A stretch of DNA of 64,000 nucleotides from an uncultured Roseivirgaceae bacterium (GTDB taxonomy: Bacteria; Bacteroidota; Bacteroidia; Cytophagales; Cyclobacteriaceae): contig CAYGOF010000011.1 of NCBI GenBank assembly GCA_964351395.1, forward strand, positions 829-64,828, given 5' to 3'. Below the pieces are notes generated by a model, which saw only the letters and a list, made by a program, of their open reading frames with translations, was not told the DNA's origin and ran no database searches. This document shows, in pieces, positions 1-15,625 of the stretch. Position 1 is the first letter of the stretch. The number at the start of each line of letters is the position of its first letter. A program made the position numbers and the translations under genes.

Positions 1-73
1 TCGCACGCACCCGTTTCTGCTGATATTTATCGGGACTCAAACGAGGGCGATGGGGGGTGTGATTCTGACCCCT

Positions 74-1873
74 TCATTTTGCTAGTAGGTGACTTGGGGT
101 TGAGTCTCTAACAAATATTACTGCGTCAAAATTTTCAGTTAAAGTTGTTTTGACAAATTGATACCTACTATTAATACCAGCCCCTATATATCTAAGTTTA
201 TGATACTCAAACAGCCATTCGTTTTCCGAAACTCTGTTAACACCTTCCAGGTTTAAGAAGAAGTTTGGGTATTTACTCTGAAAAAAGAATGACTCATAGC
301 TGTCCGCTATAGGGGGCTCTAACGGGTAGCTACCCAAACCACCAGCATGTGTAAGATCTAATCCGGTAAAAGACCCTTGTCCTAGGGAGAAGCCAATTGA
401 GTAAATTGAAAACTCAGAATTCAAGTATCTTCCCATACCTGCTCCGTAGTGTTCGGCCGTACTGATATGTGCGTTGTGTGCCCAGATGATGATTTTTATG
501 TTTTTATTCTCTTTTGCAAACTGAGATATGTTTTCTGCCATGTGCTTATCACGGGTTTGCAAATTCTCACCACTTATTTTTGCTCTAAAATACGCTGCAC
601 TTTGTTTTAGAGAGAGAAGCTTTTTTTTTATTTGCACATATTTATCACGATTTGAAGTTGCCGTAAGCAGGGCTTTCTTCTTTTCCAGATAGACATATAA
701 ACTGTCAATTTGATTATCGAATGCAATAACATCTTCCAGCTTTCCGCCAGGGAACCGAAAAAACGTCTCCCTTAATTCAAGCGCCTTATTGTAAAGACTT
801 GTGTCGATTCCCAAGGAAAATTCAAGGATTGGATCTAGTGCCTTATCAGATGATGGGATATCGAAGCCAACTATTTTTACTTTCTCATCTCTGTTCATAT
901 TAAAGACCCTCAACCATTTCAACAAAGTCAAGAACTCCTCTGTTTTATACGGCCAGTAGCCAATCTGTGACAGAATAGCTCTTGGATCGCCATTACCATT
1001 GGCTATATAATTATTTAAAATTTCAGCATCTGTCATATCCATCTCTAAGGCAAGGATGTGGTAGTTCATGTTTGACACTAAAAACCTTACCATTTGGTCT
1101 TTTAGTTGATAAATTTCACTACTACCATGAGTTTCCTCACCTAGAGCAACGAATCTTGAATTCTTCAAATCTTTTTTTAAAAAGGCTGGCTCAAAGGCAT
1201 CCAAATTATCAATTGAAACTACACTCATATTCAGCCAGTTCAACTGCTGTGACGTTGCGGATGAAGTCAAGGGAGCATCTGAATCTAGAAGCTTCTCATC
1301 ATCGATATATATTTCGAATGCATCGACCCATATTGAGTTAACAGAAGATGTCCTTACCCCAAACGCCATATATTCTGTGGACGGTTCAATTTTTTCTTCT
1401 ACTACAATTGCATTCCAGTCCGACCTAATCTTAGCCATTTGGCTTGGAGTGCCTTTTTTTCTTTGCACTTCATCGCCGTCCTTTGACAGCTGCCTTATGA
1501 ATGGTGATACTTCGGCATGAGGATCTTTTGATCTTACATGCATCAGAATTCTAATACTGCTCTTGTTTTTGAAACTGATTTTTTCAATGTCATTTAACAA
1601 AGTTGCGGAACATGGCTTAAGCGGAGAGATTGGGTGTACTGCAAAACTCAATTTTCCGCTAAAAGAGACGAGTGAATCTGACTCGAATAAACATTCGTCT
1701 TCTTCAACAATATACCATTCGATTGGTAGAGAGTTCTCATTGCCAGTGACTTCAAAATCATAATTTTGAAAACCCTGAGCAGCGAAACGCTGAAAGCAAG
1801 CGGATTGGAAAACACCGACAATCAGAAAAACTACTCTTATGGGCATTTTTCTAAGAATTTCACGTGTTCTCAT
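74..1873 (-). CDS. Secreted erythromycin-esterase-family protein with an extra N-terminal jelly-roll-like domain
   Basis: 599-aa ORF with a hydrophobic N-terminal signal-like segment. The C-terminal ~400 aa carry erythromycin-esterase-family signatures (ALGEETHGSSE, IIWAHNAHIS). The ~190-aa N-terminal extension is not typical for the family. Motif recall only. Confidence 0.75.
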   Translation of the reverse strand: MRTREILRKMPIRVVFLIVGVFQSACFQRFAAQGFQNYDFEVTGNENSLPIEWYIVEEDECLFESDSLVSFSGKLSFAVHPISPLKPCSATLLNDIEKISFKNKSSIRILMHVRSKDPHAEVSPFIRQLSKDGDEVQRKKGTPSQMAKIRSDWNAIVVEEKIEPSTEYMAFGVRTSSVNSIWVDAFEIYIDDEKLLDSDAPLTSSATSQQLNWLNMSVVSIDNLDAFEPAFLKKDLKNSRFVALGEETHGSSEIYQLKDQMVRFLVSNMNYHILALEMDMTDAEILNNYIANGNGDPRAILSQIGYWPYKTEEFLTLLKWLRVFNMNRDEKVKIVGFDIPSSDKALDPILEFSLGIDTSLYNKALELRETFFRFPGGKLEDVIAFDNQIDSLYVYLEKKKALLTATSNRDKYVQIKKKLLSLKQSAAYFRAKISGENLQTRDKHMAENISQFAKENKNIKIIIWAHNAHISTAEHYGAGMGRYLNSEFSIYSIGFSLGQGSFTGLDLTHAGGLGSYPLEPPIADSYESFFFQSKYPNFFLNLEGVNRVSENEWLFEYHKLRYIGAGINSRYQFVKTTLTENFDAVIFVRDSTPSHLLAK

Positions 1874-1984
1874 AGTTAAAAATACGCTATTTTCAGCAAA
1901 AATCGTTTATCTCATGGAGAAATTAAACCTGAGGAAGAGGCAGATATGCAGCTGATTTCAATGAAAATAGTATCTGGAAAGTAG

Positions 1985-2295
1985 GGTTGGGAGGGGCTAT
2001 TTACATTGTCCCGTTTCTCAAGACAAATGGAGTGGTTTCGCCGGCCTTTTTTAGGTTGCGCAACACCCACCCCCTCGGTTGCGCAACCTCGCCTACCCAG
2101 GTTGGGCAACCTACACTACCTGTATTGCGCAACCTTGACCCCCAGGGTTGGGCAACCCCACCACCGTACATTGCGCAACCTTGGCGACACTTATGCGCAA
2201 TGATGGCGCCGCCCTTGGGCAACCGGCACGCCGAAGTTGCGCAGGACCAGTAGCTGGCATTGGGCGAGAGGGGTAGTGGAGCTTGGGCAAGTGCA
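1985..2295. repeat. 23-bp-periodic array of the palindrome GGTTGCGCAACC (about 13 units, GC-rich, non-coding)
   Basis: TTG(C/G)GCAAC cores start at 2056, 2079, 2102, 2125, 2148, 2171, 2193, 2215, 2237, 2260 and 2283. Degenerate in-phase copies run back to 1987. The period is not a multiple of 3, and spacers are C-rich on the + strand. Confidence 0.9.
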
Positions 2296-2730
2296 TTGAG
2301 TCGCTCACGAAAACTATTGGGACTCGAGTGCCGGCGGTATATCAATTCAGGCTTACAACAATGAAATTCGATAGTTTATAAACTCCGATTCCAAATACAA
2401 ATCCAATCAACATCCAATAGCGTCTTTTGTTTTTTGTCAACTTGAACAACCTGCTTTCTAAGTAGATATAAAGTATAATTTGCGCCTGTTTTGCATGTCA
2501 ATTATTGTCAAAAAAAAGGAGCAGTTGGATTGAAAGAAAATGGAATCAGGAAAGAAGAGTATGGATACTTTTTAACACATTTGCTGTGGTCGATATAAAG
2601 AGGAGGTGGGCAGCTACAACTGTATTTTTTTGTATCATAAAAATACTGTTTTTCACTTCTTTTTCAAGTACCAGCATTCGCTTCTACGCCTTCCCGTCAG
2701 GTCCATTTTAATGGCTCTACCATGCCATTA

Positions 2731-4008
2731 TCACCTGGCGTCCGTTTTTTCCAGCCAATCAGTAATGGCAGGCAAGTAACCCTGTGGTAATAGTTGAAAA
2801 TAAGGAAACTCCTGATCTACATAGGTCATAGAATGAGTGGTGTTGTCAAGCGTCAAGACCTCATACATTTTTGGTGGTGATTTTTTTAATGCCTGCTTAA
2901 TTACTTTGTAACTATCTGCCGGAATTACCTGGTCCGATAAGCCCTGAATAACCAAAACCGGCTGAGTGACTTGCTCGAAATAGGGCAGGCCGCTAAAATT
3001 CAACTTCATATCTTTTTGAACATCCTGTTCGGGAAACCAAATCTCATTGAACCAATCCTTGCCTTGGTTTTTGTTTTTTATCTCAAGCAATGTTTCGTAC
3101 GGGATATTGCCAGCCAGGTAATCATAGCCGGCTTTCTGCACTTTCAGGGCTTGGTCAATATTCGCTTTCCCAATCTTGTCGGAGTGACTGTTTTTCCAAC
3201 TGTTCAAATCACTTTCCAGTAGGGTGCCACTCGGACAGCTCACCGAAATTCCAAAACCTAATTCAGGCATTTTGGCTAAAATGTAAGGTATTTTTGTTCC
3301 TCCCTGACTGCTGCCTTTTATACCAATATCATCAAGCGATAGTGAGGAAACCTGAGAGAAGAATTGCAAAGCGTTCATGTCATCGGAGCAGAGTTCCTCT
3401 ATGCTTGCCGACTGCCAATTGCCCTGAGATTTTCCGGTCCCACGTTTATCATAATTGAAAACCGTGTAACCCAATTGGGCAAAATGGGCGGCTTCTGCGT
3501 TAGTACCACTTCGGTCATTGCCCTGAGAGGAGGTCACGAAAAACAAACCCTTATTGATGGGGTTCTTTGGTTTCCATAAGCTGCCTGAAAGCTTAAGATC
3601 ATTCGAAGTGAAAGTGAATTCCTGTCTTTCAATGCGTTCGGCTTCTGATGAAGTTTCTTGATTCAGATAAGTTTCAAATGTGTTCAATAATTGCTCTGTT
3701 TCATTTGAATACACGTTGAGCACCCCCTCATAATTCTCAGCGATTCGTGAGAATTGATATTCATACGTATAATAGTCGCTAATGACATAAAAGCTGAGGG
3801 TGTCTTTGTCGATCGTGGTGTTTTGACAAGGTATTTCAAACGCATTCATCGCTGTGCTGGAAAAGAAGGCTTGTGTTTGGTTACTTGTTTCCACCAGTTT
3901 GATCTGATAGCTCATGTTTGATTTCCCATAGACAAGACTTCCCTGAAAAGATTGGGCATGCAGGGTAAAGGAAAGACACGTTAGTCCAAAAAGTACAAGA
4001 TATTTCAT
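2731..4008 (-). CDS. Secreted alpha/beta-hydrolase (dienelactone hydrolase / S9 peptidase-like)
   Basis: 425-aa ORF with an N-terminal signal peptide (MKYLVLFGLTCLSFTLHA). Nucleophile elbow GSSQG (IGIKGSSQGG), plus a C-terminal His-containing segment (TTHSM) typical of alpha/beta hydrolases. Confidence 0.7.
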   Translation of the reverse strand: MKYLVLFGLTCLSFTLHAQSFQGSLVYGKSNMSYQIKLVETSNQTQAFFSSTAMNAFEIPCQNTTIDKDTLSFYVISDYYTYEYQFSRIAENYEGVLNVYSNETEQLLNTFETYLNQETSSEAERIERQEFTFTSNDLKLSGSLWKPKNPINKGLFFVTSSQGNDRSGTNAEAAHFAQLGYTVFNYDKRGTGKSQGNWQSASIEELCSDDMNALQFFSQVSSLSLDDIGIKGSSQGGTKIPYILAKMPELGFGISVSCPSGTLLESDLNSWKNSHSDKIGKANIDQALKVQKAGYDYLAGNIPYETLLEIKNKNQGKDWFNEIWFPEQDVQKDMKLNFSGLPYFEQVTQPVLVIQGLSDQVIPADSYKVIKQALKKSPPKMYEVLTLDNTTHSMTYVDQEFPYFQLLPQGYLPAITDWLEKTDAR

Positions 4009-4247
4009 TGTTGTAGTATGTATGTCTAAGGCCTATCAAACGCATCAAGTCACCAATTGGTTGTTTTGAAAGGATTTCATTCAGAGGAGCCTGGCTCCAC
4101 CTGCCATGGCTAAGCAGGTCCAGCTTGCTCCAATGGTAATAATAAAGGCAAAAAAGGAGGGCAGGCTGCTATTTACGCTTTAAATGATGGTCGATGCAAA
4201 TCAGTAGGGGAACAGTGGGGGGCGATGCTGTGGGAATTCACTCGCCG

Positions 4248-4910
4248 TTATATCAATTTTTGGGCATGGGCATAGTTGACAAGCCCTACTACAGAAGAAC
4301 AACCGGTCTTGCGAAGAATGTTTTTTCTATGTGTTTCTACCGTTTTTTCACTGATAAAAAGCACTTCCGCAATTTGTTTGGTGGAAAAATCTCTGGCGAT
4401 CAATTTGATGATTTCCATTTCTCTGGGCGAAAGGTAACTCTTCTCGGAAGGGGAATTAATTTGCTGCACCAGTATTTCGGAAATCTCATCGCTAAAAAAC
4501 TTTTTTCCGGCAGTCACTTTGTCCAGCGCCTGAAGCAAGGAGGAGTGGGTGTCATTTTTCAACACAAAGCTGTCGATATTTTCTTTGAGGAGTTCTTTCA
4601 CTACGGAAGGGTCGTCATGCATGCTCAGCACAATCACCCTGATGTCAGGATGAACAGCTCGTGCTATTTTGATAATTTCCAGCCCCGAGTAATCCGGAAG
4701 TTCATAGTCGGTGATCAGTATGTCAAAATCCTGGGATTTAAGTAATTCAATGGCTTCTTTTCCCTTGCTTGCTAAACCAGCGACATCATATAGTGCAAGT
4801 CCGCTGAGAAGCCGTTGCGTTCCCTCAAGCAATATCTTGTGATCGTCTACTAACAGTATTCGGTATTTCTCCACACTCAGTTGGCCTACAGTACGATTAA
4901 ATAAACGCAT
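4248..4910 (-). CDS. Response regulator, NarL/FixJ (LuxR-type HTH) family
   Basis: Receiver domain (ILLVDDHKILLEG ... DILITDYELPD) plus a C-terminal LuxR HTH (LSPREMEIIKLIARDFSTKQIAEVLFISEKTVETHRKNILRKTG). Lies directly downstream of the cognate kinase. Confidence 0.9.
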   Translation of the reverse strand: MRLFNRTVGQLSVEKYRILLVDDHKILLEGTQRLLSGLALYDVAGLASKGKEAIELLKSQDFDILITDYELPDYSGLEIIKIARAVHPDIRVIVLSMHDDPSVVKELLKENIDSFVLKNDTHSSLLQALDKVTAGKKFFSDEISEILVQQINSPSEKSYLSPREMEIIKLIARDFSTKQIAEVLFISEKTVETHRKNILRKTGCSSVVGLVNYAHAQKLI

Positions 4911-4965
4911 CTTATCATTTCCAACAAAGAAACGCAGGTAATATAGATGATTTCAATACCAATGA

Positions 4966-6837
4966 TCAGGTATTAGCTATAGGATTTACAGCTTGAAAGG
5001 CAGCTTTGGTAGCTATGCTAAGTGTTAAGGTTGTGTTTTTTCTTCCCACTTGGGTATCAATGTCCATTGACCCTGCGATGAGGTGCAAACGTGTATTGAT
5101 ATTTCTCCAACCATTGCCCTTGCTGTGTTCAAATGACTGCAAATCGAAGCCTTCGCCGTTATCTTCCACCGTAATGATCACTTCATCGTCATGGGCTGTC
5201 ATTTGTATCCATAACTCAGTCGCCCCCGCATACTTGAGTACATTGGAGACCCACTCTTGCAAAATCCGATAAAGCGATATTTCCACCACCTCGTTAAATC
5301 GCTCTTCTATGCCAAAGGCCTGAATTTTTACTGTTACCTGGTTTGATTTATTGATCCGTGCAGTTAATTCCTGAAGCGCTGAAAGTAAGCCTTCCCGGCT
5401 GAGCACCGGAGGCATTAGGTTGAAGGCCACATTCCTTATCTCATGTTGAATATCATTCAGTAATGCAGTGGAATTATCAACGATTTCATTTCGTACCACG
5501 ACGTCGTGGCTAGCCTCCTTCAATCCCTGAATATTCATGGTGAGCGCACTCACCAGTTGCCCCATGCTGTCGTGCAGGTCTGAGGCAAATCGCTTACGTT
5601 CCTTTTCTTCACTGCTAATAACGGCCTGAATCTGCGCTTCCCGAAGTCTTAGTTTTTGCTCGTTCAACACTTCCTGCTGGCGGATGTGAGTGCGCTGACG
5701 CCATAAATAGAAAACCAACAGAAGTAGCGATACTACCACTACCAAAGCCAAAATAATGACATTGTTGCGCTCGTTGGTAGCCTTCTGAAGCCTGTATTCC
5801 TGATCCAAAAAAGCAATTTTTTGATCTTTCTTTTCGGTTTCATACCTGGTTTGCAACTCTTCGATAGCGTTCGTTTTATTGATATTGAAAAGGCTATCGT
5901 TGAATTCCCTGTATTTCAATTCGTTGAAGTAGGCAGCCTCAAAATTGTCAACCTGGGCATAGCATCTTTGTAGCCAATCATGGTTTTGACGCATCAACCA
6001 TAGGTAGCCTACCGATTTAGCCACTTCATTGGAGGTCAGAAAATGCTCAATGGCTTGAGCGTATTTCTGAAGGGTAAAGAGGTTTCTCCCAATTAATTGC
6101 TCGTTTTCAGCTACCCCCTGGCTGTCGCCTAATTGTGTTCTTATGGCGGTAGACTGTTGAATGTATTGGTCTGAGGCCTCTACGTTGCCCTTTGCAAACT
6201 GATAATTGGCAAAGTCTAATAATACATAGCCCAAGCCCACTGAATCGTTCAATTGCATGCGAATGTCCATCACTTTTCGAAAATAGACCTGGGCAGAATC
6301 TAATTCCCCTTTTTTAAAGAGGATAGTGCCACGCATTCCATAATTGGTGCCTAATTGTTCAAGATTGTTAGCAGCTTGTGCGGCAGCCTCGGCTTTGTCA
6401 AGTGCCGCATAGGCACGTTCCATGTTGTTTTGATGCCGGTACACCACAGAAATTTCATTGAATAACCTGGCAATGCCACTTTGGTTGTTGAGCCTCTCGA
6501 AAATATCAGCAGCAGTTAGGTAGGATTTTAAGGCAGCTTCATAGTTGCCTCGTAAGCTGTTGGCAATACCATTGTAAAGCAAAGCATAGGCTTCTCTATC
6601 CGGCCACTTATTTTTTATGCTCAGTTGGCGCGCAGTGACCGTCAGTTTGATCGCCACGTCAAAATTAGCACTGTAGATAGCGTAGAAATTGGTGAGAACA
6701 CTATCCACCTTATGTTCCTCCAGGATGATGGCGATTTGTTCGGCTGTCTGCCCGGCAACGTAACCATTTCCTCCAAAACTGTGGTTAGTGAAAAAGGAAA
6801 TGAAAATCAAAAGAGCAGCAGGGGCTTTCAGACACAT
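4966..6837 (-). CDS. Sensor histidine kinase with N-terminal TPR repeats (HisKA_3 / NarX-type core)
   Basis: 623 aa. Signal/TM segment, TPR-like repeats, one TM (VIILALVVVVSLLLLVFYLW), a coiled coil, H-box ERKRFASDLHDSMGQ, and an HATPase_c-like C-terminus (VEDNGEGF). Confidence 0.85.
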   Translation of the reverse strand: MCLKAPAALLIFISFFTNHSFGGNGYVAGQTAEQIAIILEEHKVDSVLTNFYAIYSANFDVAIKLTVTARQLSIKNKWPDREAYALLYNGIANSLRGNYEAALKSYLTAADIFERLNNQSGIARLFNEISVVYRHQNNMERAYAALDKAEAAAQAANNLEQLGTNYGMRGTILFKKGELDSAQVYFRKVMDIRMQLNDSVGLGYVLLDFANYQFAKGNVEASDQYIQQSTAIRTQLGDSQGVAENEQLIGRNLFTLQKYAQAIEHFLTSNEVAKSVGYLWLMRQNHDWLQRCYAQVDNFEAAYFNELKYREFNDSLFNINKTNAIEELQTRYETEKKDQKIAFLDQEYRLQKATNERNNVIILALVVVVSLLLLVFYLWRQRTHIRQQEVLNEQKLRLREAQIQAVISSEEKERKRFASDLHDSMGQLVSALTMNIQGLKEASHDVVVRNEIVDNSTALLNDIQHEIRNVAFNLMPPVLSREGLLSALQELTARINKSNQVTVKIQAFGIEERFNEVVEISLYRILQEWVSNVLKYAGATELWIQMTAHDDEVIITVEDNGEGFDLQSFEHSKGNGWRNINTRLHLIAGSMDIDTQVGRKNTTLTLSIATKAAFQAVNPIANT

Positions 6838-6852
6838 AGTTTAAATCATCAA

Positions 6853-6868
6853 TACCTACTACTAGGTA
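6853..6868. promoter_or_regulatory. Candidate NarL-type 7-2-7 operator TACCTAC-TA-CTAGGTA
   Basis: Inverted heptamers resembling the NarL heptamer TACYYMT in a 7-2-7 arrangement. They sit in the 103-bp divergent region between the NarL-type TCS operon and the 6941 gene. A third TACCGAA heptamer lies at 6877-6883. Confidence 0.35.
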
Positions 6869-6940
6869 GGCCAAAATACCGAATGAACCCTATTGAAACA
6901 AGGATTTGTGAATGGGTTATTTGTTTAAAAAATCAGAAGT

Positions 6941-7942
6941 ATGAAAAAAATTTTGTTGATCGCCGTATTGTTTTCCTACTCCATTGCCAACGCTCAGATT
7001 GTGACTGAGAAAAATATTAGAGATGGCAGCTATGGTGCGAAAAAACTTAGCAAAGCGCCAAAAAAGATCTATTTGAATCAATTTTTTATTAATTATCAAG
7101 TACTAGCCTCTGGCTCAGAAACCAGTACTGGAGGAAAGACGAGTGCAGAAATGGCTGTCGGGCTAGTTGGTATTGAACTTGAAGACATGCAGGAAATCAC
7201 CAATAATGCATATGCCATGGTTGTTAAAAAGCTAAAGGATGCTGGTGTTGAAATAGTAGGCGCAGATGAAGCCGGAAAAACAGCGTTTTATAGTGATTGG
7301 ACTAGAATGCCTGGAGGAACGCCTTCTCACGCACAGCTGTTAGGTTATGTTTCTACAGCACCTGCTGGTTATGATTTTTATGTAAAAAAAGTCACCAATA
7401 AGGGCAAGGCCAAGGGTACATTCTTAGATACTACGCCCAAGCTCTCCGATGAATTGGGGGACATACCTGTGTTTGAGACAAACGTCAGTTTTCAGTTTGT
7501 AACGATTGAAGGGAGTAGTTCAATGGTCACAGAAGCTTCAAGAATGAAAGGTGTGGTCAACTACCAGATACCCGAAACGGCCATAGCAAAGTCATCTGAA
7601 GGAATATTTGGTGGTAAGATTGAAACGGCTCAGGTGATGACCCGTGTGGTCTGGAAGGGTGGAGCTAAAGGAATGGGAGCGGGCACTATAATGGCTTTTA
7701 GTCCTAAAGGGGAGATAGAAATACCGGGAGTAGTTGAGCAAAAGAAGTTTAAAGAATATGTGACGCCAGGGGTGAGTTACAATACTTCTTATTCCGGCAT
7801 TGTTTACACAAACAAAAAGGAGCTAGAAGTCTCTCATCAGGTAAAGGCTGATCGTGAGGCATTCAAATCAAAGACCCAACAGGCGCTTAACGAATATTTG
7901 GCCTATGTGGTCGATCAATTCATTGCCAATCTAAACGGTTGA
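6941..7942 (+). CDS. Hypothetical secreted protein (no recognised domain)
   Basis: 333-aa ORF with a clear signal peptide (MKKILLIAVLFSYSIANAQ), followed by an intrinsic terminator. Divergent from the TPR-kinase/NarL operon. Confidence 0.6.
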   Translation: MKKILLIAVLFSYSIANAQIVTEKNIRDGSYGAKKLSKAPKKIYLNQFFINYQVLASGSETSTGGKTSAEMAVGLVGIELEDMQEITNNAYAMVVKKLKDAGVEIVGADEAGKTAFYSDWTRMPGGTPSHAQLLGYVSTAPAGYDFYVKKVTNKGKAKGTFLDTTPKLSDELGDIPVFETNVSFQFVTIEGSSSMVTEASRMKGVVNYQIPETAIAKSSEGIFGGKIETAQVMTRVVWKGGAKGMGAGTIMAFSPKGEIEIPGVVEQKKFKEYVTPGVSYNTSYSGIVYTNKKELEVSHQVKADREAFKSKTQQALNEYLAYVVDQFIANLNG

Positions 7943-7950
7943 AAATGTAT

Positions 7951-7990
7951 GGAGGAGAATACCTGCCTAACTTTCTCCTCCTTTCTCTTT
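7951..7990 (+). terminator. Rho-independent terminator
   Basis: GGAGGAGAA (7951-7959) pairs with TTCTCCTCC (7973-7981), followed by TTTCTCTTT. Located 9 nt after the stop of the 6941..7942 gene. Confidence 0.6.
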
Positions 7991-8079
7991 AAAATGGATG
8001 CCAAAATGGTTGGCGTTAATTTTCATGAACCTAATATGAAAATAGGTACGATATGATGACTTTAATTGAACGAAGAAGC

Positions 8080-8292
8080 TTATGCTCCTTCGTTTGCCAT
8101 TTTTTTCAACTTGTTTTTCATCGAACTGATAAGTAAAAATTCCATAAAAAATGCGCAAATAATGAAAAGGCTGACCGCTTTGAATGACTCACCTAACACC
8201 TGTTGGCAAGCAAAGAGTAAAATAGCCCAAATTATGCTGCTTACTATTTGAATAGTCGTTAACATTTGATGTGAGTTTTTTGTGTTTTCCAT
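8080..8292 (-). CDS. Possible small two-TM membrane protein
   Basis: 70-aa ORF with two hydrophobic segments (IVSSIIWAILLFACQQVLG, AVSLFIICAFFMEFLLISS) in an otherwise gene-free 640-bp gap. No other support. Confidence 0.3.
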   Translation of the reverse strand: MENTKNSHQMLTTIQIVSSIIWAILLFACQQVLGESFKAVSLFIICAFFMEFLLISSMKNKLKKMANEGA

Positions 8293-8585
8293 TTTTTTAA
8301 GTTTAAAACGTGATTTCTAAAGTTGCTTAATTAGTTAGTGACACGCCTTTTCGAAAACTTTCAAAAAATGGTCATTTTTTTTTGTAATTCTTCTGCTAGC
8401 CAGGATTGGGCATGAAATAGGAGGACCTTTTCGTGGTCGCCAGACTCACTGAACGAGATCGGTTAATGTAAAAAGCGACAAAGAGTAGCACTGACACACC
8501 AGGAATGAAAATAAGGCGCAATTGACTATTTCACAGGGATTTGTGATGTCGGGTGAACAAGATGTGAGCTTATTTTTGCTGTTAT

Positions 8586-10888: not shown

Positions 10889-11458
10889 TTACATCGATAC
10901 TCTTTTCGAACTGTTGTTCGATGATACTTCGAAGGTGAAGCCTTTGCTTCCAATACTTGATAAATCGTATACCTTGCTGAATCCCTTGGTAAAGATGACT
11001 CTTTCGGTGTGAATCAGTTCGCCTTCTTCGTCGAAGATGCCAATTTTCGCATCACCACCGTGACTGTCTTTGTAGACCAGCTGGTACCTGTTGGCGTCTA
11101 GTTGATTCACACCAATTTCCTCTATTTCCTGTACCCTGGCCAGCAGGGAGAAATCGCCATCTTTGTCAGATATGACAAGCTGATAATTACCAGGGCCAAG
11201 ATCACTCATGTCATAAGGCTTCTTAAAACCCGATTTGTTTTGAATTCTGTCTACCCTGAGGATATGCCCCATCTCGTCAAGGACTTTTACTCTGACGACA
11301 CCAGGAGTATCGTCGGCATAAATAAGACTGTACTTTCCGGCTGTCTGTGATGGGACCAAAGCTACTTTTGTTGCATTTTCACCATTGCCTTCGGCGAAGG
11401 ATACGGTACTCATAGCTGCCACAAGCATCGCACATAAAATGATAGTTCTCTTTTTCAT
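10889..11458 (-). CDS. Hypothetical secreted protein with two internal beta-sandwich-like repeats
   Basis: Signal peptide (MKKRTIILCAMLVAAMSTVSFA). Internal duplication: YSLIYADDTPGVVRVKVLDEMGHILRVDRI..KSGFKKPYDMSDLGPGNYQLVI versus YQLVYKDSHGGDAKIGIFDEEGELIHTERV..TKGFSKVYDLSSIGSKGFTFEV. Confidence 0.6.
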   Translation of the reverse strand: MKKRTIILCAMLVAAMSTVSFAEGNGENATKVALVPSQTAGKYSLIYADDTPGVVRVKVLDEMGHILRVDRIQNKSGFKKPYDMSDLGPGNYQLVISDKDGDFSLLARVQEIEEIGVNQLDANRYQLVYKDSHGGDAKIGIFDEEGELIHTERVIFTKGFSKVYDLSSIGSKGFTFEVSSNNSSKRVSM

Positions 11459-11527
11459 AGTGTTTTGAGTTTTATTGACCCGTTGTTGAATCAGTTAAAC
11501 ATATTAACGGGCAACCCGAGCAAGGTT

Positions 11528-11564
11528 TGTCATGAATCAGTCAAGCGCTGTCATGAAATGTCAC
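11528..11564. promoter_or_regulatory. Direct repeats TGTCATGAA x2 plus TGTCAC (candidate OmpR-family regulator site)
   Basis: TGTCATGAA occurs at 11528-11536 and 11549-11557 (21-bp step), and TGTCAC at 11559-11564 (10-bp step). They lie 70-106 bp upstream of the 10889..11458 start codon, just downstream of an OmpR-type TCS operon. Confidence 0.3.
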
Positions 11565-11690
11565 GGTTGTGTTGAGAGATGTAAAAAGGAAGGCAGAGGA
11601 GGACCGAAGTTGGAAGTTAGGAGACCGAAGGCGTCGGTACCACAGCACTGGATGGAGCCCTCGCAGGTTAGACGCCGCTTGCCCATTTAA

Positions 11691-11852
11691 TAGTAATCGG
11701 TGATTAGTAAGGTGTAATCAGACCCCAGGGTTGTTATAATATGGTTATTTTCACTCAAGTATGTCGTTTCAAAAAAAATCGAACCGTGCTTTTCATTAAC
11801 ACTTACCATCTACCGATTACCGTTTACTACTTACTGATCACTACCTACTCCG
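11691..11852. repeat. Two inverted arrays of heptanucleotide repeats flanking an 82-bp AT-rich core
   Basis: Seven contiguous heptads at 11804-11852: TACCATC TACCGAT TACCGTT TACTACT TACTGAT CACTACC TACTCCG. Four heptads of the complementary sense at 11692-11719: AGTAATC GGTGATT AGTAAGG TGTAATC. The right-hand array overlaps the stop codon of the response regulator. Confidence 0.7.
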
Positions 11853-12555
11853 CAATCAGCTTATAGCCAATACCATGCACGGTAAGAATGATCTTTGGAT
11901 CGTTGGGGTTGGTTTCTATTTTTTGGCGAATTTTAAGGATGAAATTATCCACCGTGCGGGTGGTTGGTTGGGCCTCGTATCCCCACACGTCTTCCAGAAG
12001 TTTGTAGCGACTGACAATGTCATTTTTATTGGTCAGAAGAAACTTAAGGATATCAAATTCTTTATGCGATAGCTTTACCTCCTGGCTTCCCTCATAAGCC
12101 ACATAATGCTTGAAGTCGAGAACCAACCTTCCAATGCTGGCCTTTTCCAGTGCTGGTTCTGAAGTACCGCTGGTCGAAGAGGAGCCGCTTCCTTCGGTTC
12201 GGCGGAGAATGGCTTTGATTCTGGCAATAAGCTCTCTCAGGCTGAAAGGCTTGGTCATGTAGTCATCGGCACCAAGTTCAAGTCCCAATACCTTGTCAAT
12301 TTCCTCTCCTTTAGCTGTTAGAAAAATAATAGGGGTTTTCACTCCCAATTTGCGTGCATGTCTGCATACATCGAAACCTGACATTTTCGGCATCATGGCA
12401 TCCAGCACAATGAGGTCGTAGGTCGCTTGCTGGATTTTTTGCAATCCTTTTTCTCCATCTTCTGCCAACTCCACCGCATACCCCTCGAATTCGAGATTGT
12501 CTTTGAGTCCCATTCGCATGTGCAATTCGTCTTCAACTATGAGAATATTAGCCAT
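11845..12555 (-). CDS. Response regulator, OmpR/PhoB family (winged-helix)
   Basis: Receiver (ILIVEDELHMRMGL ... LIVLDAMMPKMSG ... IIFLTAKG) plus a Trans_reg_C-like C-terminus (LSHKEFDILKFLL ... TRTVDNFILKIRQKIE ... TVHGIGYKL). Confidence 0.9.
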   Translation of the reverse strand: MANILIVEDELHMRMGLKDNLEFEGYAVELAEDGEKGLQKIQQATYDLIVLDAMMPKMSGFDVCRHARKLGVKTPIIFLTAKGEEIDKVLGLELGADDYMTKPFSLRELIARIKAILRRTEGSGSSSTSGTSEPALEKASIGRLVLDFKHYVAYEGSQEVKLSHKEFDILKFLLTNKNDIVSRYKLLEDVWGYEAQPTTRTVDNFILKIRQKIETNPNDPKIILTVHGIGYKLIAE

Positions 12556-12565
12556 GATAGTGTGT

Positions 12566-14119
12566 TTAGCTGATTAAAATGGGAAACATGAGTTTAAATG
12601 TACTGCCTTTACCGGGCTTGCTGTCGACCATAATTTCCCCTGAGTGGGCATCCATGATATGTTTAACAATAGAAAGACCTAGTCCGGTGCCCTGGGTATT
12701 GTAAATGTCGCCCTGAGTTACCCTATAAAATTTATCAAAAATTTGTTTGCGTTTCTTTTCCTCAATGCCAACTCCCTGATCGATGACAGCCACTACCGCC
12801 CAATTGTCTGCCTCTTCTGTTGAAATGGAGATGTTTTTAGTGTCTGGGCTGTATTTGATGGCGTTGTCAAGGAGGTTAATAATTGCTTCCATGATGGCTT
12901 CTTTATCGGCTCTGATTGGCCCCATTCCATCTGTAAAATGAACCTGATAGGTAAAGCCTTTATTCTCAAGATGGAAAGAATAAGTATGGAGCACATCTCT
13001 AACCACATCATTAAGGAATGTTTTCTCCAGGTGATAGGTCTTTTTGTTGGCTTCAATCTGAGAGAAGTTCAGGATTTTATTAACGATGTTGGTCAAGCGC
13101 CCAGTTTCCTTTAAGATGATTTCGTAGTATTCTTTCTTTTTTACCTCTGCCGTTATTCTTCCCAATAAAAGCGTTTCTGCAAACATACTAATGAGCGAGA
13201 GAGGGGTGCGAATTTCGTGCGATACATTGCTTACAAAGTCGGATTTAGTTTGAGCCAGGTGCATCTCTGCCCTTATACTCCGAAACACCATCACAAAACC
13301 TAAAATGAGCACTACTGAAACAATTCCAATCATCACCAAATTCGTATTGGTACGCTCTTTCATGATGTTTTCAAGCGAATTGCCTGGTACATAAATCTCC
13401 AACTCATAGTCAGGCAGTAACCAGATAGGTTTTGACTGTACCTTGTTGTTCATCAACGAATCGGTCGTATATATGAGTTGCCCTGTCACCCGGTTTGATG
13501 CAGCCAATACAAATTCTTCTCCAGCCACCTGTGCCATCTTGGGTGCCAACAACTGCTCAATCATGTCACTTGGACGGATGATGACCACACAAAGAGAGTA
13601 AGTGTCGGCACTATTTCCCAATACCATCAGCAGGGTGTTGAACCTTTCCTCCTGGTGGGTTAGCACCTTAAAAGGTTCAATTTTTCGAAAGCCTGAAGCT
13701 TTGTAATCTGTAAGCTTTTTCACCAGGGCCGATTCCTCTTTTAAATGAGTTTCGATTTGGGCCAATAGCTCATCACGTGGTAATTCTTCTTTTTCGAAAT
13801 AGGCTCTTCTTTGATTTTTTTCCAGGGGGAAGAAATAAATAGCCGAAACCCCTGGGTAGCCATCAAGAATTTCTTTCGGGAACTCATTGACGCCTTTTCT
13901 TGCCCAGGCATCATCAACTCTTGTGGTCATACTGTTCACCACATCGTCGGAATATTGGTTGATGGAAAAAAGAAAAGTCTCAATTTGCTTGCCATATATG
14001 TCTCGCATCATTTCAACACTCTGATTGAGACTACGCACCTCAAATACCATGAGCACGCTGATGGGCAGCACGATGACGAGCATCAGGATAAATGATATTT
14101 TGCTAAAAGAAGTCCGCAT
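12566..14119 (-). CDS. Sensor histidine kinase (HisKA + HATPase_c)
   Basis: 517 aa with two TM segments, H-box FVSNVSHEIRTPLSLI, N-box LLDNAIKYS, and G-boxes DQGVGI / GTGLGLSIV. Lies 10 bp upstream of the OmpR-type regulator. Confidence 0.85.
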   Translation of the reverse strand: MRTSFSKISFILMLVIVLPISVLMVFEVRSLNQSVEMMRDIYGKQIETFLFSINQYSDDVVNSMTTRVDDAWARKGVNEFPKEILDGYPGVSAIYFFPLEKNQRRAYFEKEELPRDELLAQIETHLKEESALVKKLTDYKASGFRKIEPFKVLTHQEERFNTLLMVLGNSADTYSLCVVIIRPSDMIEQLLAPKMAQVAGEEFVLAASNRVTGQLIYTTDSLMNNKVQSKPIWLLPDYELEIYVPGNSLENIMKERTNTNLVMIGIVSVVLILGFVMVFRSIRAEMHLAQTKSDFVSNVSHEIRTPLSLISMFAETLLLGRITAEVKKKEYYEIILKETGRLTNIVNKILNFSQIEANKKTYHLEKTFLNDVVRDVLHTYSFHLENKGFTYQVHFTDGMGPIRADKEAIMEAIINLLDNAIKYSPDTKNISISTEEADNWAVVAVIDQGVGIEEKKRKQIFDKFYRVTQGDIYNTQGTGLGLSIVKHIMDAHSGEIMVDSKPGKGSTFKLMFPILIS

Positions 14120-14297
14120 GAAGAGATGTCAATTTGGAAATACGCAAGTTTCGAACGAAAGTAGCACAATCATGACATTTTTTTACGATTGGCTGGCATT
14201 GCAACGTTGTTTGAAGCTTCTTGCAAAATGCAAAAACCACATATGCAATCGTAGCTGGTTTACTTAACTTGTACTCCAGTCAATTTAAAAGCCTATT

Positions 14298-15389
14298 ATG
14301 AAGCCATTTGCCATTGACCCAAATATCAAAAGCGCATCTACGCTGCCAGCGTCTTTTTACAAGGATAGTCAGGTTTTCGAAAGCCTCAAAGACCGTGTGT
14401 TTGCAAAAAGCTGGCAATGGATTGGACAGGAGTCTCAGGTTTTGCTTTCAGAAAGCACCCATCCATTTACGCTGATGGAGGGTTATTTGGATGAGCCATT
14501 GCTGCTCACTAAAGACGCTGCTGACGAGGTGCGTTGCTTGAGTAATGTGTGTACTCACCGAGGAGCCTTGCTGTGCATGAACCCCGGAAAAGCGAAGAAG
14601 CTGGTTTGCCAGTACCACGGCAGGCGGTTTGCGCTTGACGGTCAGTTTGAACATATGCCTGAATTTGGAGACGCAGAGAACTTCCCAAGAGACTGCGATA
14701 ATTTACCATCGCTTCCGCTTCGCAATTGGTTTGGTTTTCTCTTTACCTCATTAGACCCATCCTTTGATTTTCAGCAGGTTATTGACGTGATGCAGGAGCG
14801 TGTGGGCTTCCTTGATCCTGCCAAATTCAGGTTCGCCCCTGAATTTAGCCGCGACTACCTGGTCAATAGCCATTGGGCACTTTATTGTGACAACTATCTC
14901 GAAGGGTTTCATATTCCATTTGTACATAAAGACCTGAATGCCGTGCTTGACTATGGTAGTTACAAAACACTGATCTATGATCATTGCAACCTTCAGATCG
15001 GTTACGGTAAACCCGGCGGCGATGCCTTCGATTTGCCGAAGGGACATCCCGATGAGGGAAAGATTGTTTCGGCCTGGTATTACTGGGTGTTTCCCAATAT
15101 GATGTTTAATTTTTATCCCTGGGGGCTATCGGTAAATATTGTTAGGCCCTTGTCGATGGGAAGGACCAAGGTAAGTTTTCTGACTTATATCCTCGATGAA
15201 GAGCGGTACAAGCAGGGGGCTGATGTTATGACAGACAAAGTTGAAAGAGAGGATGAGTTTGTTGTGGAAGCCGTGCAAAAAGGGATAAGGTCAAGGTTTT
15301 ATCCAGGAGGAAGGTTTTCGCCAACGAGGGAAAAGGGGGTTCATCATTTCCACGGCCTGCTGGCGAAGTTTATCAACGCCGTAAAGTAG
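14298..15389 (+). CDS. Rieske [2Fe-2S] aromatic-ring-hydroxylating oxygenase alpha-subunit-like protein
   Basis: Rieske motif CLSNVCTHRG...CQYHGRRF, followed by a catalytic domain with His-rich segments (NYLEGFHIPFVH). Confidence 0.8.
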   Translation: MKPFAIDPNIKSASTLPASFYKDSQVFESLKDRVFAKSWQWIGQESQVLLSESTHPFTLMEGYLDEPLLLTKDAADEVRCLSNVCTHRGALLCMNPGKAKKLVCQYHGRRFALDGQFEHMPEFGDAENFPRDCDNLPSLPLRNWFGFLFTSLDPSFDFQQVIDVMQERVGFLDPAKFRFAPEFSRDYLVNSHWALYCDNYLEGFHIPFVHKDLNAVLDYGSYKTLIYDHCNLQIGYGKPGGDAFDLPKGHPDEGKIVSAWYYWVFPNMMFNFYPWGLSVNIVRPLSMGRTKVSFLTYILDEERYKQGADVMTDKVEREDEFVVEAVQKGIRSRFYPGGRFSPTREKGVHHFHGLLAKFINAVK

Positions 15390-15558
15390 CTCGGAAGTAG
15401 GCAAAGGCGTTTTGCCGTCAAGTTTTAAGCAACTCCCTCTGGTCCGTCACCCACCCCTGGTCTGTCCCCTGACCGACCATGACCAGTTCCTACGCACCGG
15501 ATGGTTTGTTATTCGATAAATCACCTATAAAACCATGTTAATTGATTGAAGGCTGTCG

Positions 15559-15621
15559 GGGGACTGCCCTCGGAGATTTGGGGACAGCCCTCAGAGCTTT
15601 GGGGACAGCCCTCGGTCGGGG
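15559..15621. repeat. 3 x 21-bp tandem repeat GGGGAC(A/T)GCCCTC(G/A)G...
   Basis: GGGGAC starts at 15559, 15580 and 15601, an exact 21-bp period. Lies in a GC-rich stretch between convergent genes. A partial fourth copy abuts the stop of the 15626 gene. Confidence 0.85.
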
Positions 15622-15625
15622 AGCC

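Follow-up and report, generated by a model that had tools for sequence, protein, structure and literature searches.

Between an esterase gene and a hydrolase gene in the window (the whole 64-kb stretch of DNA analysed here) lies an island of evenly spaced palindromes. What kind of element is this array, and what might it do? A preliminary description took it for ~13 phased copies of a 12-bp palindrome, proposed a local device at the esterase promoter, and did not recognise it as a described element. The answer given here comes from the array itself, from its homologues in other genomes and from the genes beside those homologues.

The array and its limits

The array has ~11 units in total, six clean and five degenerate, rather than ~13 (Table 1). 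Its palindromes are 12 bp long and every unit is in direct orientation. Exact TTGSGCAAC cores begin at 2056, 2079, 2102, 2125, 2148 and 2171, in the 23-bp steps expected from the preliminary description, and again at 2215. The pattern gave 10 strand-matches compared to 1.4 expected (no shuffle reached 10), and its sole further site in the window is at 24804. A clean unit consists of a 12-bp core, (GG/TA/CA)TTG(C/G)GCAAC(C/A), and an 11-bp C-rich spacer. The perfect palindrome described for the best units, GGTTGCGCAACC, is found in one unit (2077-2088). CG and GG core centres take turns in the clean part, giving the 46-bp higher-order unit that had been suggested, and a tandem-repeat finder (TRF), run as proposed, reported both periods: 23 bp at 2077-2157 and 46 bp at 2079-2183 (81% matches). 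A strict periodic scan of the 64 kb found the clean part and no second such array.

The array runs on at 2193, 2215, 2237, 2260 and 2283, as had been claimed, with one or two mismatches in every unit except 2215. These four mismatched units are real; paralogous copies in other genomes (L043, L010, L050, L003 and L030) carry position-for-position equivalents. The degenerate part closes with a terminus common to the family, ...GTAGTGGAG(C/G)TTGGGC. In the other direction, the proposed in-phase copies back to 1987 could not be confirmed: the 12-mers at 2008 and 2031 are unlike the motif, and that at 1985 (GGTTGGGAGGGG) fits it in the first seven bases only. Other copies are homologous from 2023 onward, and the repeat itself begins at 2054.

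The island is GC-rich (0.56-0.60, compared to 0.43 window-wide). The C-rich spacers noted earlier on the + strand are confined to the first six (C 51%, G 12%); the last four are G-rich (45%). The core centre may be C or G, but on one strand only, and this makes the array polar. The palindromes were thought to lie on roughly one face of the DNA. However, 23 bp corresponds to 2.19 helical turns (at 10.5 bp/turn), so successive sites would turn by ~70 degrees, off one face. The array is not a protein-coding repeat. Its period is 22-23 bp, the overlapping ORFs across it have no Pfam match, and no reading frame is conserved since paralogues differ by 22- versus 23-bp units. These ORFs are artefacts, as first suggested, and for annotation, overlapping ORFs over such GC-rich islands are spurious.

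Table 1. Features of the array and its neighbouring genes in the window.
Feature	Position	Strand	Basis
Erythromycin-esterase family protein gene	74..1873	-	Pfam PF05139, E = 8e-52
Whole dispersed element	2023..2288		266 bp by homology; 84% identity to L043 (Imperialibacter sp. F4-SAH-14)
Conserved non-repeat flank, clean end	2023..2053		GGTTTCGCCGGCCTTTTTTAGG; BLAST homology to L043 begins at 2023
Clean array part	2054..2181		Six well-kept 23-bp units; exact matches, TRF periods 23 and 46
Degenerate array part	2191..2295		Five in-phase units, ATGCGCAAT, TTGGGCAAC, TTGCGCAGG, TTGGGCGAG, TTGGGCAAG; 22-23-bp steps
Alpha/beta-hydrolase or S9/S15 peptidase gene	2731..4008	-	ORF and Pfam

The genes around the array encode the esterase, the hydrolase and a two-component system, and the window contains gyrB. 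The window GyrB is 98% identical to that of an Imperialibacter MAG, by which the organism is Imperialibacter-like. A gap of 181 bp separates the esterase start codon from the array's clean end, and 435 bp separate the hydrolase stop codon from its degenerate end. The closest matches of the esterase were an identical copy in L001 (same genome) and then a homologue of 44% identity in a different context; an orthologous locus for the array was not recovered by searches with the esterase, nor by exact look-ups of the hydrolase, P0029 and the response regulator.

Rfam gave no match to the window region (best E = 3.4), nor to two HU-HIG upstream regions at permissive E-values. No relatives of the array were found by blastn among 72,556 plasmids and 50,697 phages, and a scan of viral contigs returned nothing but 21-bp repeats in coding sequence, simple minisatellites and a single site in a prophage. 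A phage or plasmid origin was rejected on these searches. Literature on HU-HIG, PF18291, TIGR01201, repeats and Imperialibacter held no account of such arrays, and motif strings matched primers and unrelated sequences only. The searches thus agree with the preliminary view that this is not a described element.

Homologous arrays and HU-HIG genes

The array is not a local minisatellite: a scan of genome contigs showed homologues of it, spacers and all, at unrelated loci of Imperialibacter. The window array is 73% identical to L010 over 186 bp (69% over 242 bp) and 71% identical to L050 over 189 bp. L010 and L050 each have their array ~0.7 kb upstream of an HU-HIG gene; HU-HIG (PF18291/TIGR01201) is a divergent clade of the HU/IHF proteins. 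The 2023-2053 flank, which reads CCTAAAAAAGGCCGGCGAAACC on the - strand, is the counterpart of CCCGAAAAAGAGCGACG past the gene-proximal end of these linked arrays, and the esterase is transcribed in the same direction, relative to the array, as the HU-HIG gene relative to linked arrays. As homologous copies adjoin unrelated genes, a purely local role at the esterase promoter is unsupported.

HU-HIG is the only gene common to the HU-HIG array loci; no rep, cas or consistent transposase gene was found. Only two loci, L069 and L078, have Y1_Tnp genes, and a RAYT/IS200 link was rejected on that ground. The linked genes match PF18291 (E = 1e-21 to 1e-28) and TIGR01201, and the HU-HIG profile covers the whole of the HU/IHF fold as seen in solved DNA-bending proteins. 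Few DNA-binding families of Bacteroidota are as expanded as HU-HIG, whose target and conserved genomic partner are unreported (PMC5499826); that study reports no conserved HU-HIG neighbourhood and does not mention adjacent periodic arrays.

The association was found from both sides. An HU-HIG gene lies within ~1 kb at 8 of ~20 Bacteroidota TTGCGCAA-array loci. In the reverse test, loci were retrieved by protein similarity alone from the Imperialibacter clade and metagenomic relatives, and 17 of the 18 that could be assessed had an adjacent array of 22-24-bp period (4-12 units). By a strict criterion there were 13 arrays in 48.7 kb near HU-HIG genes, none in the remaining 149 kb of the HU-HIG loci, and none in shuffles. 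An array rule for all HU-HIG genes is unsupported, as seven distant loci (gut Bacteroidales, Treponema) have no clear array within 2 kb.

The cores are paralog-specific and mostly dyad-symmetric. Those seen were TTGSGCAA, AAGCGCTT, TTAAGSGCTTA, GAAGCTTC, GGAAGCTTCC, ATAGCTAT, CTGCGCAG, CGATGCGCATCG and AACTAC-AC-GTAGTT; the three AAGCGCTT loci represent a single protein clade. The L010 HU-HIG protein is 73% identical to P0003, which has GAAGCTTC arrays, and 69% identical to P0012, which has AAGCGCTT arrays, but only 37% identical to the L013 protein, though the core is common to L010 and L013. Specificity would therefore have to sit in a few residues.

In L037 and L008 the array is placed past the terminator hairpin of the HU-HIG gene, which argues for a role at the level of DNA and not of a UTR. 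HU-HIG loci adjoin variable defence islands and cas9, and the paralogs are diversifying. A conserved box, TTTTGGCAY-N5-TTG(A/G), lies upstream of HU-HIG leaders; a sigma-54-like reading of it was not adopted, because the -12 GC is absent.

We defined a class of 'HU-HIG-associated periodic palindrome arrays' operationally. Members have at least four head-to-tail units of 21-24-bp period, with a conserved dyad-symmetric core and spacers that differ between units; further criteria are homology to an HU-HIG-linked array, an HU-HIG gene within ~1.5 kb, and binding of the cognate HU-HIG. The window array has six exact and five degenerate units in 22-23-bp steps, a TTGSGCAA(C) core with non-identical spacers, and homology to L010 and L050, but no HU-HIG gene within ~1.5 kb. 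Indeed, tblastn with five HU-HIG proteins found no such gene in the 64-kb window (best E = 0.65). This makes the window copy a solo (orphan) array, as are L003, L030 and L043. Arrays of 22-24-bp periodic palindromes beside HU-HIG genes are apparently an undescribed class.

Solo copies keep 5-7 intact cores of 9-11 units, as many as linked copies. Three MAGs have several TTGCGCAA arrays, and in each exactly one is HU-HIG-linked and the others are solo (L010 with L003, L030 and L043; L008 with L019; L028 with L046 and L052). The orientation of the arrays relative to flanking genes differs from copy to copy. TTGCGCAA arrays are also plentiful in MAGs of Verrucomicrobiota and Kiritimatiellia; no HU-HIG gene was observed in their vicinity there, and a search for a conserved neighbour gene at these array loci found none.

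Arrays and cores are under purifying selection. In five strains the linked AAGCGCTT array has 3.2% variable columns and is as conserved as the coding sequence (2.8%), while its flanks (21.8% and 21.2%) vary ~sevenfold more. Between the window array and L043, both orphans, the 8-bp cores differ at 3/86 positions and the rest at 32/149 (Fisher p = 1e-4), so that core conservation is ~sixfold above that of the spacers. In the gene-linked array the spacers are conserved too, which a simple core-only site model leaves unexplained.

A possible HU-HIG platform and its alternatives

What could such a solo array do? Its cores behave as conserved sequence motifs. The preliminary description offered iteron-like, cooperative protein sites or serial RNA hairpins; of these, protein binding is the better supported reading, and hairpins were set aside given the lack of covariation, modest z-scores and flank complementarity at expectation. 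The reading that we tentatively favour is that the array, as a solo copy of the HU-HIG-linked family, may well be a multi-site platform on which a TTGSGCAA-specific HU-HIG paralog, with its gene elsewhere, would dock. HU-HIG as the binder, cooperative binding and any regulatory effect are what we infer from the genomic patterns. Each 22-23-bp unit would present one dyad-symmetric TTGSGCAA core to a homodimer of a paralog of matching specificity, like P0001 of L010, encoded elsewhere in the source genome. Loading of some 11 head-to-tail phased sites could then be cooperative, starting at the clean end, where affinity would be high, and moving into the degenerate units. This would give a bent or solenoidal nucleoprotein block of ~250 bp, resembling the complexes of Rep with iterons or of centromere-binding proteins with parC/sopC. 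The block would sit 180-420 bp ahead of the esterase start codon and could insulate or modulate the esterase promoter, an effect that is the weakest link of the proposal.

Several observations stand against the HU-HIG model. The window has no HU-HIG gene; adjacency of gene and array could arise by co-inheritance of a module and not by recognition; specificity would need to depend on a few residues, and gene-linked spacers are conserved as well; seven distant loci have no clear array, and the TTGCGCAA arrays of Verrucomicrobiota and Kiritimatiellia have no HU-HIG gene nearby. Moreover, Burroughs, Kaur, Zhang and Aravind (2017) argue against sequence-specific binding by HU-HIG proteins and consider them unlikely transcription factors of that kind (PMC5499826).

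Could the array simply be a selfish or passively dispersed repeat of REP/BIME or MITE type, with no host function here and adjacent to HU-HIG genes because both share recombination-prone, island-rich regions? Its sharp homology limits would fit, since BLAST and alignments found the flanks of the window element and L043 to be unrelated at both ends, and the distal array end is precisely where homology between L010 and L050 starts. Also consistent are the 100-300-bp elements around TTGCGCAA arrays at at least 10 loci and contig ends in PVC and Bacteroidales MAGs, the variable defence islands flanked by HU-HIG loci, and a Y1 (IS200/RAYT-type) gene 174 bp from the L078 array. We nevertheless consider this rather unlikely. 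The preliminary description had linked a REP/BIME-like element to hundreds of loci; the array is indeed dispersed, but its copy number appears low in the DNA covered: the 64-kb window has one copy, a further 149 kb of Imperialibacter-type DNA has none, and a stringent pattern gave four matches in one Imperialibacter MAG. Terminal inverted repeats and target duplications were not found on inspection, there is no Y1 transposase gene in the window or at any array locus besides L069 and L078, and the hallmarks of REP (20-40-nt palindromes, GTAG head) are absent. Furthermore, cores are better conserved than the rest between diverged solo copies and a linked array is under strong purifying selection, neither of which a junk element would show. 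This core conservation also bears on the unlikely case that the window array is a relic of an array and HU-HIG module, whose gene and leader were deleted, leaving the array neutral and slowly decaying. HU-HIG genes are rampantly gained and lost (PMC5499826), and in the window the array turns its clean end toward the next gene, with the orientation found in linked modules. Rearrangements of this sort do happen: in L076 a deletion joins a truncated array straight to the HU-HIG ORF at codon 5. However, neither the window array nor other solo copies have beside them any remnant of an HU-HIG coding sequence or of its conserved leader and promoter. The intact cores of solo copies match those of linked ones in number, and a neutral relic sits poorly with cores so much better conserved than spacers.

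A different regulator, for example an HTH or RHH dimer on TTGCGCAA that is unlinked and controls the esterase, with HU-HIG genes merely frequent targets, appears improbable to us. Contiguous 8-bp palindromes are typical for dimeric regulators of small size, some phyla have TTGCGCAA arrays with no HU-HIG gene seen nearby, and in L012 such an array is found directly upstream of a Phd/RelE-type toxin-antitoxin pair. Yet each HU-HIG paralog has its own core, which would call for a separate unlinked regulator for each, and HU-HIG is the sole paralog-specific protein encoded beside arrays. Very doubtful, finally, is action as RNA or single-stranded DNA, be it through hairpins in series, through an sRNA whose repeated GSGC loops would act as a protein sponge, or through a C-rich tract that loads Rho (rut-like). 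A 12-nt palindrome yields a 4-bp stem at best, and the predicted MFE structure pairs separate repeats with each other and does not form serial hairpins. No compensatory variation was seen around the cores, flank complementarity equalled expectation in every family, and the RNAalifold covariation term was unfavourable (+4.28, positive values being unfavourable). Copies are inconsistently oriented relative to flanking genes, and some linked arrays sit past terminators. The cores are self-complementary, the first six spacers are C-rich and G-poor on the + strand, and the one-strand choice of C/G at the core centre gives polarity, all of which would suit RNA; spacers, however, are AT-rich in the GC-rich Kiritimatiellia and GC-rich in the window, so C-richness is no general feature. 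The + strand folded somewhat better than shuffles, with unremarkable z-scores overall (-2.36 for the + strand, and -1.3), and E. coli HU is reported to bind RNAs derived from REP325.

Beyond this locus, HU-HIG proteins and arrays might together form unrecognised, fast-diversifying protein/DNA 'address' pairs in Bacteroidota, each paralog with its own palindromic core, offered 4-12 times at a 22-24-bp period, and with one linked array and further scattered solo arrays such as that of the window, on which solenoid-like blocks would mark, insulate or protect loci. We regard this wider reading as possible, if somewhat doubtful. Target loci in this 'address' reading are often at the borders of defence islands, next to CRISPR-Cas. 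If it is true, the HU-HIG expansion gains sequence-specific targets and a testable function, and it might bear on how defence islands and CRISPR loci are organised. The linkage at 17 of 18 loci, with the related solo arrays, turns the question of the HU-HIG target into a direct experiment.

Comparison with known systems

REP/BIME elements are, like the array, dispersed intergenic palindromic repeats, often downstream of genes. They differ in being 20-40-nt hairpins of alternating orientation, as opposed to head-to-tail 8-12-bp cores in apparently low copy; the array has no 20-40-nt palindromes with a GTAG/CTAC head and no cognate Y1 gene. The REP325 naRNAs, which E. coli HU reportedly binds in work by Macvanin/Qian and Adhya, are a precedent for an HU-family protein tied to a repeat cluster. 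CRISPR shares with the array a palindromic repeat with variable spacers, polarity and a T/A-rich flank at the clean end. Its repeats are 23-50 bp and its spacers 26-72 bp, compared to ~12 bp and ~11 bp in the array, and no cas genes are among the neighbours of the window array. Unlike those of CRISPR, the array spacers are shared and positionally conserved between paralogous copies in different genomes. The Rfam and covariation results above likewise do not place the array among structured ncRNAs.

The iterons of RK2, pPS10 and R6K have 17-22-bp units with ~22-bp spacing, and ori-lambda has four palindromic sites for O protein. Like HU-HIG-type arrays, iterons are 4-12 direct repeats of ~22-23-bp period, often beside the gene of their binder, and lambda-type sites are each dyad-symmetric, as array cores are. 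The window array has direct repeats of ~22 bp but no adjacent rep or origin features: it is chromosomal (gyrB being in the window) and lacks a rep gene, DnaA boxes and an AT-rich unwinding element. In iterons the whole unit is conserved, in the array only a 9-12-bp core, and solo copies of the array are dispersed.

Partition centromeres (parC/ParR of R1, sopC/SopB of F, tubC/TubR) differ in that no ParA, ParM or TubZ NTPase gene was found beside any array, there are several solo arrays per genome, and the partner would be a protein of the HU/IHF fold. Like the arrays, they are phased and lie beside the gene of a small DNA-binding protein, and sopC of F consists of 12 repeats of 43 bp that each contain a 16-bp palindrome. 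Their repeats are system-specific, as array cores are, and known centromeres assemble a solenoid-like nucleoprotein complex. If the favoured HU-HIG reading is confirmed, the arrays would be a chromosomal analogue of iteron and centromere nucleoprotein complexes, built on the HU/IHF fold.

Layout of the array in the window

The 23-bp-period repeat in a GC-rich island that had been described from the sequence alone is real. Over both strands of the 64-kb window, TTGSGCAAC matched 10 times where 1.4 matches were expected, a count that none of the shuffles attained; the sole site in the 64 kb outside the array lies at 24804. TRF returned a 23-bp period at 2077-2157 and confirmed the proposed 46-bp higher-order unit at 2079-2183 (81% matches). 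The GC content of the array was 0.56-0.60, compared to 0.43 for the window. The preliminary description had counted about 13 units, back to 1987. There are about 11 instead, because 2008 and 2031 are unlike the motif and 1985 matches it only partly. The C-richness that it gave for all spacers applies to the first six (51% C, 12% G) but not to the last four, which are G-rich. The overlapping ORFs across the array, which it had taken for artefacts, indeed have no Pfam match.

Between the array and the hydrolase gene, an AT-rich stretch holds a near-consensus sigma-70-type promoter-like site (TTGACA-18-TATACT, 11/12 matches; the Bacteroidota consensus differs) that faces the array and the esterase gene. 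A 21-bp tandem repeat of unrelated sequence, GGGGACAGCCCTCGGAGATTT (2.7 copies, 88% matches), lies in the short spacer of the convergent Rieske oxygenase and FMN-dependent dehydrogenase genes.

Coordinates of arrays and associated features (L numbers are loci retrieved from other genomes)
Feature	Position	Remarks
Exact TTGSGCAAC cores	window, starts 2056, 2079, 2102, 2125, 2148, 2171, 2215	
Clean units (n=6)	window 2054-2181	in register
Degenerate units (n=5)	window 2191-2295	in register
Promoter-like site	window 2472-2501	- strand
21-bp tandem repeat	window 15559-15615	
AAGCGCTT(AT) x8	L066-68, L081, L083	e.g. L067:9017-9190
TTAAGSGCTTA x6	L078/79 (L078:3410-3530)	CG/GG centres alternate, as in window
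GGTTAAGCSCTTAAC	L082:2480-2600	
TGAAGCTTCAAC/CAAGCTTG x10	L069-71 (L069:9260-9495)	
GTTCCGCCTTGAAC	L073/74 (L073:7300-7600)	
GTGTTGSSCAACAT x8	L077:250-430	
ATAGCTATGTTT x6	L084:386-507	
AACTACACGTAGTT x5	L089:79-173	
AAATGTGCGCA	L087	
GGAAGCTTCC x5	L091	just downstream of HU-HIG gene
AAAACGT-N5-ACGTTTT	L092	just downstream of HU-HIG gene
CGATGCGCATCG	L090	just downstream of HU-HIG gene
CCTGCGCAGG	L086	just downstream of HU-HIG gene
TGAAACTnTAGTTTCA palindromes	L099:4092-4160	Bacteroides finegoldii
Linked vs solo arrays, per MAG	L010 vs L003/L030/L043; L008 vs L019; L028 vs L046/L052	
Array-to-gene features	L010:2100-2170 (region upstream); L067:9480-9620; L069:9790-9830; L078:3830-3870; L084:1560-1600	
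Module flanked by defence genes	L066, L067, L068	genes 1-8300, 11000-16000
Paralog upstream of cas9-cas1-cas2	L069/L070:10912-17611	
Truncated TTGSGCAA array	L076:3950-4030	
Y1 transposase genes	L078:2880-3245; L069:1824-2267	
Composite elements, Kiritimatiellia LOHA37	L002, L006, L026, L029, L039, L041, L042, L053, L057, L059	
Composite elements, Verrucomicrobiota CM_BacUBA	L016-L022, L027, L033, L040, L048, L055, L058	
Composite elements, Bacteroidales Phil12	L028, L046, L052	
Prophage TTGCGCAAC cores	L014:1690-1811 = L064:1215-1335	Methylocucumis oryzae

Arrays beside HU-HIG genes

Of about 20 Bacteroidota loci with an array, 8 (L007, L008, L010, L013, L028, L032, L037 and L050) had a small HU-like gene no more than about 1 kb away; no such gene was found in the 64-kb window. 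They fall in PF18291 (HU-HIG) and TIGR01201, and a profile of the array-linked proteins aligned across the entire HU/IHF fold of solved structures. Each of three MAGs with several TTGCGCAA arrays had exactly one linked to an HU-HIG gene, the others being solo, and in PVC phyla no TTGCGCAA array had an HU-HIG neighbour.

In a reverse test, HU-HIG loci were gathered on protein similarity alone and then searched for periodic repeats. With L080 and L085 excluded as too short, 17 of 18 assessable loci (all but L088) carried an array of 4-12 units with a 22-24-bp period and a core unlike that of the window; the TTGNGCAA array was found at none. The cores were distinct for each HU-HIG paralog and for the most part palindromic (AAGCGCTT, GAAGCTTC, GTTCCGCCTTGAAC, ATAGCTAT, AACTACACGTAGTT, GGAAGCTTCC and others). 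At protein level, the three AAGCGCTT-type loci formed one clade, and a second comprised the proteins whose arrays lie downstream. Most upstream arrays had clean units proximal to the gene and degenerate units distal, with L077 apparently reversed. Under a strict criterion, by which one hexamer had to recur four or more times in steps of 21-24 bp, 13 arrays lay at -1500 to +500 of HU-HIG genes (48.7 kb in total). Neither the remaining 149 kb of these loci nor the shuffles yielded any, and the array under study was the only match in the 64-kb window. The cores are practically limited to arrays, and HU-HIG is the one gene that these loci have in common. Seven distant HU-HIG loci (gut Bacteroidales, Treponema; PLSDB) had no clear array within 2 kb, and among them only L099 had GAAACTnTAGTTTC x3-4, 1.7 kb downstream. 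Here the palindrome TGAAACTnTAGTTTCA, present 3-4 times with a 22-bp period, ends a cluster of HU-HIG, hypothetical and N-acetylmuramoyl-L-alanine amidase genes; arrays of gut Bacteroides may be placed past the amidase gene instead of adjoining the HU-HIG gene.

Conserved between array and HU-HIG start codon are a AAAATAATAGAA box and a TTTTTGGCAYCAATATTG box (sigma-54-like, with the -12 GC missing) and, in several paralogs, a 300-450-nt leader (CAAGGAGTAAGAATCACTTCCGCTGAGGCCTCAAACGA...), none with an Rfam match. One HU-HIG and array module is flanked by defence genes that vary by Imperialibacter strain (type I RM, MmeI-like and McrBC systems, a MotA/ZorA-like protein), and a different paralog directly precedes cas9-cas1-cas2. 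The borders of variable defence islands thus seem to be marked by HU-HIG modules. At L076 a truncated array is joined directly to codon 5 of the HU-HIG ORF (encoding P0002); the remaining array, promoter and leader are deleted, with the breakpoint within a repeat unit. Two HU-HIG loci contain IS200/RAYT-type Y1 transposase genes, in one case at a distance of 174 bp from the array; none was seen at other array loci or in the window.

Dispersal and constraint

Scanning 185,579 species-representative genomes (596 Gb) for three phased cores gave 58 loci, some of them plain perfect minisatellites, as expected by chance in 596 Gb. Homologues of the window element, spacers included, were found at five Imperialibacter MAG loci: L043 was 84% identical to window 2023-2288 over 266 bp, and L003, L010, L030 and L050 were 69-77% identical. 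Conservation position by position extended even to the 'degenerate' 3' units and to the terminus ...TAGTGGAGGTTGGGC, and homology ended sharply at the element boundaries. As the genes around the copies differ at each locus, the earlier idea of a purely local device is not supported, and sequence comparison shows the window array to be a dispersed element rather than a local MINISATELLITE. The window GyrB shares 98% identity with the GyrB of an Imperialibacter MAG, which places the source among the Cytophagales as an Imperialibacter-like member.

In other phyla, elements of 100-300 bp with 3-5 TTGCGCAA cores and a 22-23-bp period occurred at no fewer than 10 loci per MAG (LOHA37, CM_BacUBA), and similar TTGCGCAA-core elements at three Phil12 loci. 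Copies inside one genome had nothing in common outside the element, and no conserved neighbour gene was found at them. In these composites a central TTGCGCAA block has other phased direct-repeat sets on its flanks (in Phil12, four 21-bp CAGCCCAATACTTTTCCAAGT repeats, inverted between the two sides). Many lie at contig ends, and their spacers are AT-rich within 68% GC genomes. In a prophage, four TTGCGCAAC cores, overlapping a small ORF resembling an HTH protein, lie directly upstream of a putative small-terminase-subunit gene; these cores may form a terminase-binding array of the pac or cos type, with no relation to HU-HIG.

Among five Imperialibacter strains, 6 of 185 columns of the AAGCGCTT array were variable (3.2%), compared to 21.8% and 21.2% in its flanks and 2.8% in the HU-HIG coding sequence (7.7% at third codon positions). 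Between L010 and L050, homology began exactly at the distal array end, with the array about 91% and the leader and gene about 99.5% identical. In a comparison of the solo copies in the window and L043, 3 of 86 positions differed within the 8-bp cores and 32 of 149 in the rest of the array (Fisher p = 1e-4). Therefore, even solo arrays retain their cores. The element is real, non-random and evolutionarily constrained.

Candidate role and known systems

What might the arrays do? Binding of the cognate HU-HIG dimer would most simply account for three facts at once: the dyad-symmetric cores are paralog-specific, the 22-24-bp period is constant, and adjacency to the sole paralog-specific protein is obligatory. 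Each unit would be a putative site for one dimer and the array a cooperative loading platform for that paralog. A 23-bp period is 2.19 turns, which would rotate successive dimers by about 70 degrees and, given the DNA-bending HU/IHF fold, predicts a solenoid and not a flat stack. The window array is a solo representative of an apparently undescribed class, the periodic palindrome arrays associated with HU-HIG genes. We infer its function from sequence: it would be a putative target, in trans, for a TTGSGCAA-type paralog whose gene would lie elsewhere. With respect to an erythromycin-esterase-family gene, the array sits 181-422 bp upstream and is oriented as linked arrays are to their HU-HIG gene; it may possibly affect the promoter of the esterase gene, a candidate target. 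The enigmatic HU-HIG family thereby gains a concrete, testable candidate DNA partner.

Burroughs et al. (PMC5499826) considered HU-HIG proteins unlikely to be sequence-specific, and adjacency of gene and array could be co-inheritance. Cores differ between HU-HIG proteins that are 69-73% identical, and one core is common to proteins 37% identical. In the linked array the spacers, too, are conserved. Among the alternatives, it is improbable that the arrays serve another regulator. Somewhat less doubtful is a relic of a lost HU-HIG module. A selfish dispersed element is the least unlikely of the alternatives, though still unlikely.

The lowest probability falls to a role as RNA or single-stranded DNA. 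RNAalifold on six copies gave a positive (unfavourable) covariation term, and the folding advantage of the array over shuffles was slight (z = -2.36 for the + strand and -1.29 for the - strand), with predicted pairs joining different repeats. Complementarity flanking the cores was not above column-composition expectation in any family, and the array had no Rfam match. Solo copies were inconsistently oriented to neighbour genes, and at L037 and L008 the array lies past the HU-HIG gene's terminator hairpin. Together these observations favour a role as duplex DNA.

The preliminary description did not recognise the array as a described element, and we found no account of HU-HIG-associated arrays in Rfam or the searchable literature. 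REP/BIME elements were ruled out, since the palindromes measure 12 bp, all units run in direct orientation and no RAYT gene accompanies them consistently; CRISPR, a known RNA and a coding repeat were each ruled out as well. In its working, the array would most resemble iterons and partition centromeres, in which phased repeats adjoin the gene of their binding protein. It nevertheless does not qualify as either, as it has no rep or par NTPase gene, its context is chromosomal and it had no plasmid or phage match.
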